From assembly GCA_965205265.1 (NCBI GenBank), contig CBDBGH010000003.1, positions 4,128,001 to 4,192,000 of the forward strand: 64,000 bases of DNA, read 5' to 3'. Position 1 is the first letter of the stretch. Each line of letters starts with the position of its first letter. This DNA is from Alphaproteobacteria bacterium. GTDB taxonomy: Bacteria; Pseudomonadota; Alphaproteobacteria; Bin95. A program made the position numbers and the translations under genes. Of the stretch, positions 29,623 through 30,817 are shown piece by piece. The notes beneath the pieces were generated by a model. It had not been told where the DNA came from. It was given only the letters and a program-made list of their open reading frames with translations, and did not search any database.

Positions 29623-29654
29623 CCGTCGGCGCAATCCGCGAGGCCCTTGTATCT

Positions 29655-29815
29655 CGGCGGTTCGTTGTTGCGGCTATAGTCGCGGCCACGGAAGCGGACG
29701 GGAGACCGAACCGGCCCAGGTGTCGAAGACCGCGGGGGAGCATGGTTCCCCGTCCGCTGTTCCCCTGAACCCGAACAGTCGCTTGGTCCGCTCTGCGAGA
29801 CCGCATTTGCAAGGA
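29655..29815 (+). ncRNA. Putative IS110 bridge RNA (boundaries approximate)
   Basis: Left end contains segments matching target (29732-29740) and donor (29775-29783) junctions at 9/9. Confidence 0.7.
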
Positions 29816-29821
29816 AGGGAC

Positions 29822-30754
29822 ATGGAACAGATTTTCGTTGGGATCGATGTGGCGAAGGACCGTCTGGATGTGCATCTGCGCCCGTCCGGGGAGGCCTTTG
29901 CCGTCGCGCGCGACGGCAAAGGCCTGGAAGAGTTGACGGCGCGGCTGGGCGGTCTGGAGGTCGCCCTGGCGGTGCTGGAGGCAACCGGCGGCTTCGAGGT
30001 CACGGTTGCGGCGGCGCTCTGCGCGGCCGGCCTGCCGTTGGCGGTGGTCAACCCGCGCCAGATCCGGGACTTCGCCCGCGCTACCGGCCGGCTCGCCAAA
30101 ACCGACACCCTCGATGCGGCGGCGATCGCACAGTTCGCCGAGGCGGTCCGCCCCGAGGCCCGTCCGGTGCCCGATGAGCAGGCCCGCGCGCTTGCCGAGC
30201 TGGTCGCCCGGCGGCGCCAGGTCGTTGCGATGATGACTGCTGAGAGAAACCGCAGGAAGCGCCTCGCAAGCCGTCGCACGATCCGCAGCGTCGACCGCGT
30301 GCTCGCCACCCTGCAGCGCGAACTCTCCGACCTTGAAACCGAACTCGGCGACGCCATCCGAAAAAGCCCCGCATGGCGCCAGGCCGAGGACCTCCTCAAA
30401 AGCGTCCCCGGCATTGGCGACACCACCGCGCGAACCCTGATCGCCGATCTCCCGGAACTCGGAACCCTCACCCGAAGGCGCATCGCCGCCCTCGTCGGCG
30501 TCGCGCCCTTCAACCGCGACAGCGGCAAAATGCGCGGCAAGAGAGCCATATCGGGAGGGCGCGCCCACGTCCGCACAACCCTCTACATGGCAGCCCTCAC
30601 CGCTGCCAGATACAACCCAACCATCAAACACTTCTATCGCCATCTGATCGCTGAAGGGAAAACCAAAAAGGCCGCCCTCACCGCCGTCATGCGAAAGCTC
30701 CTCACAATCCTCAACGCCATCCTCAGAGACCGAACCCCATGGAAAACTGCTTGA
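29822..30754 (+). CDS. IS110 DEDD recombinase/transposase
   Basis: GIDVAK, LEATG, KTDTLDA, PGIG, RDSG (catalytic Ser), MRKLL. Confidence 0.95.
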
Positions 30755-30817
30755 CCGACAACACAGTCGCTCCCCCGCAAGCGGGAGAGGGGAAGAAAGG
30801 AGCAGGGCAGACACGAT

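Follow-up and report, generated by a model that had tools for sequence, protein, structure and literature searches.

An IS110-group insertion sequence with a predicted left-end bridge RNA in an alphaproteobacterial genome

Introduction

The window analysed here, a stretch of 64,000 nucleotides from an alphaproteobacterial genome (assembly GCA_965205265.1, contig CBDBGH010000003.1), contains an IS110-group insertion sequence of 1122 bp at 29648-30769 on the forward strand, with the dinucleotide CT at each side. An initial annotation, made from the sequence of the window, had proposed that the non-coding left end of this element encodes a bridge RNA, and that the guides for its own ends and for its insertion site can be read directly from the DNA. 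This raised the question of whether these guides hold up when the element is compared with its relatives, and how closely the system follows IS621 of Escherichia coli. We consider it about 90% probable that the window holds an intact, recently active insertion sequence of IS621 type with a left-end bridge RNA.

Results

The element, its copies and its recombinase

The element consists of a non-coding left end of 174 nt (29648-29821), a recombinase gene and a right end of only 15 nt (30755-30769) that follows the stop codon. Exactly two full copies were found in the genome of the window, 100% identical across 1122 bp and at different places on contig C3 (Table 1). The CT core had been described as common to both junctions, and we found it at 29646-29647 on the left and at 30770-30771 on the right, and also at copy 2.

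The recombinase matched PF01548 (DEDD_Tnp_IS110) at residues 6-146 (E 5.2e-23) and PF02371 (Transposase_20) at residues 190-273 (E 1.9e-20). Residues 4-307 aligned with the IS621 transposase (8wt6, chain A; E 7.7e-41) and residues 3-307 with the ISCro4 transposase (PDB 9t56; E 4.2e-40), the likeness to ISCro4 being one of protein comparison alone. The composite active site of IS621 is formed by D11, E60, D102, D105 and S241, as named in the text of PMC11208158, and in the 8wt6 alignment D9, E53, D95, D98 and S234 stand opposite these residues, the positions being counted by hand with a 2-residue chain offset allowed for. The frame is open and the catalytic residues of IS621 are all kept, in agreement with the earlier description of an intact ortholog. 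Our comparison with IS621 draws on this protein alignment and on the residue names given in that paper; a blastn search against 5,426 E. coli genomes detected no DNA similarity.

A scan of one genome per species returned 380 stretches encoding relatives, and the best 80 of these 380 (62-93% protein identity, mostly Alphaproteobacteria) were used. Both ends could be placed by conserved end motifs in 66 of the 80, the other 14 being truncated or interrupted, and one relative (L062) with an irregular right end was left out after this step. The CT core was present at both junctions in 66 of 68 rows, made up of the 66 relatives and the two window copies. The counts for structure and donor guides given below refer to 59 distinct aligned left ends, and those for target guides to 67 distinct insertion events with 51 distinct guide pairs.

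A predicted RNA with covarying helices in the left end

RNAalifold folded the 59 left ends into four helices with two internal loops, the first enclosed by an outer stem of 14 pairs and an inner stem of 4, the second by an outer stem of 4 pairs and an inner stem of 5. Standard pairs filled 96.7% of the 1593 cells (27 pairs), compared with 83.1% in shuffles, and this level was reached by none of 500 shuffles. Changes on both sides were observed in 15 of the 27 pairs (190 cells versus 52.8), including 12 of the 14 pairs of the outer target helix, and when the partners were slid by 1-3 columns pairing was only 32-52%. G-U pairs were common (16, 20 and 27 sequences at three example pairs), which fits an RNA made from this strand. 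We also built a covariance model, R1, from 52 relatives, leaving out both the window and its 91%-identical relative. R1 scored 29691-29821 at 127.6 bits (E 3e-28) over its full length, with all helices intact in the alignment, a match that shows membership of this clade only. The 3' strand of the outer donor stem overlaps the ribosome-binding region of the recombinase gene.

All four proposed guide segments fall inside the two internal loops supported by covariation. The four strings that the initial annotation had singled out were each found where it had placed them, and its view of the locus as an IS110 element with a readable bridge RNA was borne out.

Donor guides

Within the donor loop the left donor guide repeats the right end and core, and the 9-mer acagtcgct does indeed occur both at 29775-29783 and at 30763-30771, as had been noted. 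From position -7 to the first core base, guide and end agree in 58-59 of the 59 elements, and at the second core base in 39; two variable positions of the left donor co-vary between guide and end in 58 of 59 (AT/AT in 37, GT/GT in 11 and AC/AC in 10). A 9-mer equal to right end plus core arose in 63 of 100,000 mononucleotide shuffles of the left end. The word ACAGTCGCT occurs three times in the window, where 0.36 occurrences are expected. The third, at 52051, is part of CCCGAACAGTCGCT (52045-52059), which shares 14 identical nt with the donor-loop region 29770-29783 between dissimilar flanks, and is probably a chance match.

The right donor guide was equally well conserved. The pairing of CAAG with CTTG is invariant, the next guide base is a G opposite T in 56 of 59, and, with two U looped out, an upstream A-U could pair with the AT of TGTAT. 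The same arrangement of letters is described for IS621, where A157-U158 are paired, U159-U160 are flipped out, G161 stands opposite dT12 and C162-G165 are paired (PMC11208158). The pairing of tgcaag with cttgta through one G-U, as first read, holds at 29808-29813.

Target guides

By the strand rule given in PMC11208160, left guides equal the top strand and right guides its reverse complement. The right target guide of the window element, GGGGGAG, is the reverse complement of CTCCCCC. Across the relatives, right-flank positions 3-7 matched the cognate guide in 66/67, 62/67, 64/65, 56/65 and 60/64 cases, compared with non-cognate rates of 0.80, 0.47, 0.34, 0.32 and 0.48. The mean was 4.69 of the 5 non-core positions over 64 cognate sites and 2.40 in 2450 non-cognate pairs, and this tracking was reached by none of 10,000 permutations. 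Positions 8 and 9 matched in only 17/63 and 9/61 sites, so the right target guide of the family as a whole is the core plus five bases, or 7 nt. The initial annotation had described gcgggggag as the exact reverse complement of ctcccccgc. This is correct for 29732-29740 and 30770-30778, but the rates at positions 8 and 9 rule out nine nucleotides as a family rule. Over 9 nt the guide matches at 9/9 in copy 1 and 8/9 in copy 2, and of the two extra matches (29732-29733), a peculiarity of this element, the G is found in both copies and the C in copy 1 alone. When the 174-nt left end was shuffled by mononucleotides 100,000 times, a 9-mer complementary to core plus right flank arose in 414 cases.

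For the left target guide, in its commonest register, left target (LT) positions -1 to -4 matched in 61, 60, 55 and 39 of 64 sites, with a background of 0.81, 0.29, 0.54 and 0.32, while LT -5 to -7 matched at background. The mean was 4.27 of 7 compared with 2.67, and the sum was reached by 0 of 10,000 permutations. The register itself varied: among 46 guide types 37 showed the usual one, 7 stood one base earlier and 2 one base later, a split that rules out a single fixed left-guide register in all relatives. In the window element the left guide reproduces the left flank and first core base of copy 1 as GGCCC (29713-29717) and those of copy 2 as AACCGGC-x-C; a run of five with this guide was found in 0 of 45 non-cognate flanks.

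It is possible, if somewhat doubtful, that the target loop of this clade differs from that of IS621, with a left guide of about four flank bases plus the first core base, a right guide of the core plus five, and a left guide that floats by one base. In IS621 the left target guide covers 8-9 nt of left flank and core. The 5' side of the target loop measures 11 nt here compared with 13 nt (3 + 9 + 1) in IS621, which fits a shorter left guide. As far as the published descriptions of IS621 go, the left guide tracks about 4 flank bases here and 7 there, and the right target guide including the core has 7 nt here and 4 in wild-type IS621.

The handshake positions were also kept. In every left end a C follows the right target guide (59/59) and the left donor ends in G (59/59), and at the 67 sites the base after the right donor guide stood against LT -1 as G:C in 59, A:T in 2, G:T in 4 and unpaired in 2. 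Guide letters change together with the flanks and element ends across the 51 guide pairs. Of the three observations that the initial annotation had named as able to refute it, concerning the loops, other copies and guide changes, none went against it here. Four further left ends from the same genus conform to the family rules. A search of 61 genomes, including that of the window, returned no further insertion sites for the exact guide of the window element. The only full-length close relative in that search, at 91% identity, has 7 copies in one genome and carries other guides.

Insertion sites and the role of palindromes

Copy 1 is flanked by CGAGGCC before the left CT and by CCCCCGCAAGCGGG after the right CT, and copy 2 by AACCGGCG and CCCCCGGTTCAGG at the same places. 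Common to both are CTCCCCCG on the right and GGC at LT -4 to -2, and the shared target is GGC-N-CT-CCCCCG. The target sequence of the window element itself is GGCCCTCCCCCGC.

With the element removed, the palindrome CCCTCCCCCGC-aa-GCGGGAGAGGG is seen within a dispersed repeat unit, and copy 1 occupies the 5' arm of this palindrome; copy 2 lies in the 3' arm of an unrelated imperfect palindrome. A repeat unit of about 157 bp, present once more directly upstream, ends at the site of copy 1. The unit, GAAGCCCGG..CCGTCACGCCGAGAGGCCCTCCCCC plus a short G+C-rich palindrome, forms a tandem pair here, 157 bp apart. Its left context was recognised, by reading the surroundings, at 12 of 25 listed GGC-N-CTCCCCC sites, and the unit has 11 places besides the window. 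Five of the 14 free GGCCCTCCCCC sites in the genome are followed by G, and one closely resembles the rebuilt empty site. The specificity had been proposed to be for ccctctccc..gggagaggg repeats. Copy 1 does lie in such a palindrome, but the proposal is too narrow, copy 2 having entered an unrelated one. Palindromic repeats are favoured targets, and the specificity is better given as a short word than as one repeat family.

Across the clade a hairpin over the core was present at 18 of 57 distinct sites and at 3 of 57 after shuffling, with a hairpin taken as a stem of at least 7 with at most 1 mismatch, one arbitrary definition judged against a mononucleotide shuffle.

Predicted circle junction and putative promoter

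Excision as a circle would join the right and left ends and place TTGACC and TATCTC 17 nt apart, the gap being 13 nt of right end, the CT and TG. Counting confirmed the initial statement that this junction would build TTGACC-N17-TATCTC. All rows of the 66 relatives but that of L062 showed the pattern TTGA[CT], 14 nt, CT (65 of 66), and both the -35 sequence and the spacing are kept. The left end would then be transcribed into a bridge RNA of about 160 nt, in which two internal loops follow a 5' hairpin. The insertion site would be read by the target loop (29693-29758) and the joined ends of the element by the donor loop (29769-29820), with ACAGTCGC on the left donor and AU..GCAAG pairing on CTTGTAT through one G-T wobble, and strand exchange at the CT core would be carried out by the DEDD/Ser recombinase. 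By analogy with IS621 we propose transcription, binding of the RNA, a circle intermediate and programmability.

Evidence against the reading and alternative explanations

Several observations weigh against an active element of IS621 type. The string accggccca (29710-29718) agrees with the left flank at only 5/9 in copy 1, with GGCCC contiguous, and at 7/9 in copy 2, the partial match that had been described from the outset. The second core base is never matched by the left target guide of the window element, an A (29718) standing in the place of T, and the window element and L025 are the two types whose register is shifted later, L025 with a 7-nt match. The left guide of the window element may be a shifted guide, may face a bulged flank base or may play a weak role. 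At copy 2 the pre-core base, a G, mismatches the left guide and is unpaired with the handshake G of the donor loop; by the rules described for IS621 (PMC11208158) this site looks poor. There are two copies only, although 14 GGCCCTCCCCC sites in the genome are free, including one in the first repeat unit, 160 bp upstream of the element. An Rfam 15 scan of the region gave no family at gathering score, and the single-sequence fold was no stabler than shuffles (z = -0.92; 34 of 200 fold at least as well). Fold energy is not distinctive here, and we relied on covariation instead. Finally, 3 of the 6 positions of TATCTC agree with the consensus TATAAT, and the final T is missing.

Some of these observations could be explained if the right target guide were only part of target choice, a hairpin in the site DNA being needed as well and the left guide adding little, as in ISPpu10. 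We regard this as rather unlikely. Both window copies do sit in an arm of an imperfect palindrome, the excess of core hairpins in the clade and the restriction of left-guide tracking to LT -1 to -4 point the same way, the 14 free sites remain unoccupied, and a rule of sequence plus structure is reported for ISPpu10 (10.64898/2026.03.19.712850). Against it, 39 of the 57 clade sites have no such hairpin and the comparison depends on the definition and shuffle given above, many of the free GGCCCTCCCCC sites adjoin palindromes too, and the left guide does track its flank beyond any of the permutations.

An inactive element is improbable. It would look complete while its RNA or promoter is defective or its left guide mis-set, with the copies left from an earlier active state, and the low copy number despite many candidate sites, the unusual register with its second core base mismatch and the weak -10 hexamer would agree with this. 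Against this stand the identity of both copies over 1122 bp, the open frame with all five catalytic residues, the intact state of every helix, and the 7-nt match of L025 in the same shifted register.

It is barely credible that the transposase binds the internal copies of the end sequences as DNA, in the manner of sub-terminal repeats, and that they are not RNA guides. The left donor guide does repeat the right end directly at the DNA level. Against this reading, two of the four segments agree with flanking target outside the element and vary along with it in relatives, the helices are maintained by compensatory changes and by G-U pairs, which would mismatch if the opposite strand were read, and RNA dependence is shown for the homologous IS621 (PMC11208160).

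Table 1. Features of the insertion sequence, its predicted bridge RNA and its surroundings; positions are those of the window unless a contig or locus is named.
Feature	Position	Strand	Remarks
Copy 1 (window element)	C3:4157648-4158769	+	Genome search
Copy 2	C3:894336-895457	-	Genome search
Tandem repeat units	29455-29520; 29611-29647 with 30770-30795		Element in second unit
Left target flank and left CT core, CCGCGAGGCC then CT	29636-29647	+	Direct repeat with 29479-29490
Right donor, start of left end, TGTATCT	29648-29654	+	TGTAT invariant in 59 relatives
-10-like hexamer TATCTC	29650-29655	+	17 nt after TTGACC in circle junction
Predicted 5' stem-loop of bridge RNA	29661-29692	+	Single-sequence fold; absent from RNAalifold consensus
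Target-binding loop module	29693-29758	+	Outer stem 29693-29707 / 29744-29758; inner stem-loop 29719-29731
Target loop 5' side, GAACCGGCCCA	29708-29718	+	Holds left target guide; consensus structure
Target loop 3' side, GCGGGGGAGCAT	29732-29743	+	Right target guide 29734-29740; handshake position 29741-29742
Linker between loop modules	29759-29768	+	Small hairpin GUUC/GAAC; single-sequence fold, structure coordinates
Donor-binding loop module	29769-29820	+	Outer stem ACCC/GGGA 29769-29772 / 29817-29820; inner stem-loop 29784-29803
Donor loop sides	5' 29773-29783; 3' 29804-29816	+	Consensus structure
Left donor guide ACAGTCGC(T)	29775-29783	+	Identical to right end plus core
Right donor guide ATTTGCAAG	29805-29813	+	CAAG:CTTG; G29809 opposite T (wobble); AT:AT of TGTAT
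Recombinase gene, 310 aa	29822-30754	+	DEDD_Tnp_IS110 and Transposase_20; open reading frame, Pfam
-35-like TTGACC	30751-30756	+	Contains stop codon TGA (30752-30754)
Right end	30755-30769	+	Contains left donor ACAGTCG, 30763-30769
Right CT core and right target flank, CTCCCCCGC	30770-30778	+	5' arm of palindrome with element removed
Loci grouped with the RF02234 match of the window	L029 749-907; L027 867-977; L087 1897-2026 (-)		Below threshold

Related left ends and neighbouring sequences

The best Rfam match in the window, below threshold at 29.8 bits, was RF02234 (sX15) at 29677-29828 on the minus strand, opposite to the bridge RNA. This family is listed as a small RNA of Xanthomonadaceae, and it also matched 2 of 5 short relatives at 27 bits each, again below threshold. 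On the Xanthomonas plasmid pXCV183, R1 matches the complement of the published sX15 interval over its full length (40 bits, E 9e-8), and a truncated frame with an IS110-recombinase-like start follows directly. The published coordinates of asX7, the partner of sX15, cover the target-loop half in sense (PMC3300014). sX15 thus appears to be antisense to a left end that resembles a bridge RNA; a full-text literature search for asX7 found no paper tying it to bridge RNAs.

Three diverged R1 matches of 22-25 bits were also seen, at 142431-142571 (-) and 113622-113762 (+) of contig C1 and at 772-912 of L006. Two of these were examined, and in each case a 315-aa frame carrying PF01548 and PF02371 follows directly. 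The same genome therefore has, on its small contig C1, at least two additional, diverged elements of the IS110 group, with R1-like left ends and putative guide RNAs of their own.

Among the relatives, L007, L013, L014 and L015 come from the same metagenome-assembled genome (MAG) as L009, and are part of 11 loci from that MAG among the best 80 of 380. In these four the left end is cut inside or before the target loop and unrelated sequence stands in its place. L014 and L015 have a common upstream sequence, which suggests rearranged or interrupted copies. An ALIL pseudoknot (RF01497; 113.5 bits, full score) was found at 907-1023 (-) of L038, an Azospirillum MAG contig, about 300 bp upstream of the IS110 relative, and suggests a neighbouring insertion sequence of another family. 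In the window a 40-nt direct repeat starting AACATGACATCCCATGACA is present in two copies (30862-30954; 78% alike, 53 bp apart) within the spacer between the element and the next gene.

Discussion

The element resembles IS621 in nearly every feature that the available descriptions of the E. coli system (PMC11208160, PMC11208158) allow us to compare. The recombinases have the same two domains and the catalytic residues D, E, D, D and S, and the elements have a long left end, a short right end and a CT core. The predicted RNA has the order 5' hairpin, target loop, donor loop, with the bottom strand as the expected partner of the left guides and the top strand as that of the right guides, and the donor loop is nearly equal in size. 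The right donor reads CT-TGTAT, and the right donor guide shows the letters A, U, two U, G opposite T and C..G. The left donor guide has 8 nt ending at the first core base, the handshake base of the target loop could form a pair with the last left-donor base, and a -35-like sequence lies in the right end with a -10-like one in the left end. Apart from the target loop, the differences are in the target, GGCC-CT-CCCCC here and ATCAGGC-CT-AC in IS621, and in the host, here an alphaproteobacterium.

Insertion into repeats is also known from ISPpu9 and ISPpu10 of Pseudomonas putida, IS110-family elements described as entering repetitive extragenic palindromes or a single repeated intergenic sequence (PMC12288879; 10.64898/2026.03.19.712850). 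Unlike those elements, the one described here is found in a different host and a different repeat, and in two unrelated palindromes. The IS1111 group belongs to the same recombinase family and is also RNA-guided, but in its members the right end is described as long and as the place of the guide RNA, and the sub-terminal inverted repeats as long too. The 15-nt right end and the structured RNA in the left end do not fit that group.

Bridge RNAs have been predicted in 85.7% of IS110 elements (PMC11208160), and the presence of one here is therefore no surprise. The element is a clear but ordinary example of a bridge-RNA system known since 2024. We found no record of the element itself, and the supplementary tables of PMC11208160 may already list an orthologue or its clade.

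The bridge RNA of this element could be read from raw sequence alone, and the reading survives covariation tests. The element, with its G+C-rich 11-bp target, joins the natural orthologues as a well-documented case, and about 50 relatives with different guides provide a natural reprogramming series. If the target loop does differ from that of IS621 in the way proposed above, the cut site would be fixed by the right guide and the donor loop, and slippage of the left guide would be a natural route by which elements drift to new targets. A short, movable left target guide, if true, would also bear on how strictly designed RNAs must keep the guide register.

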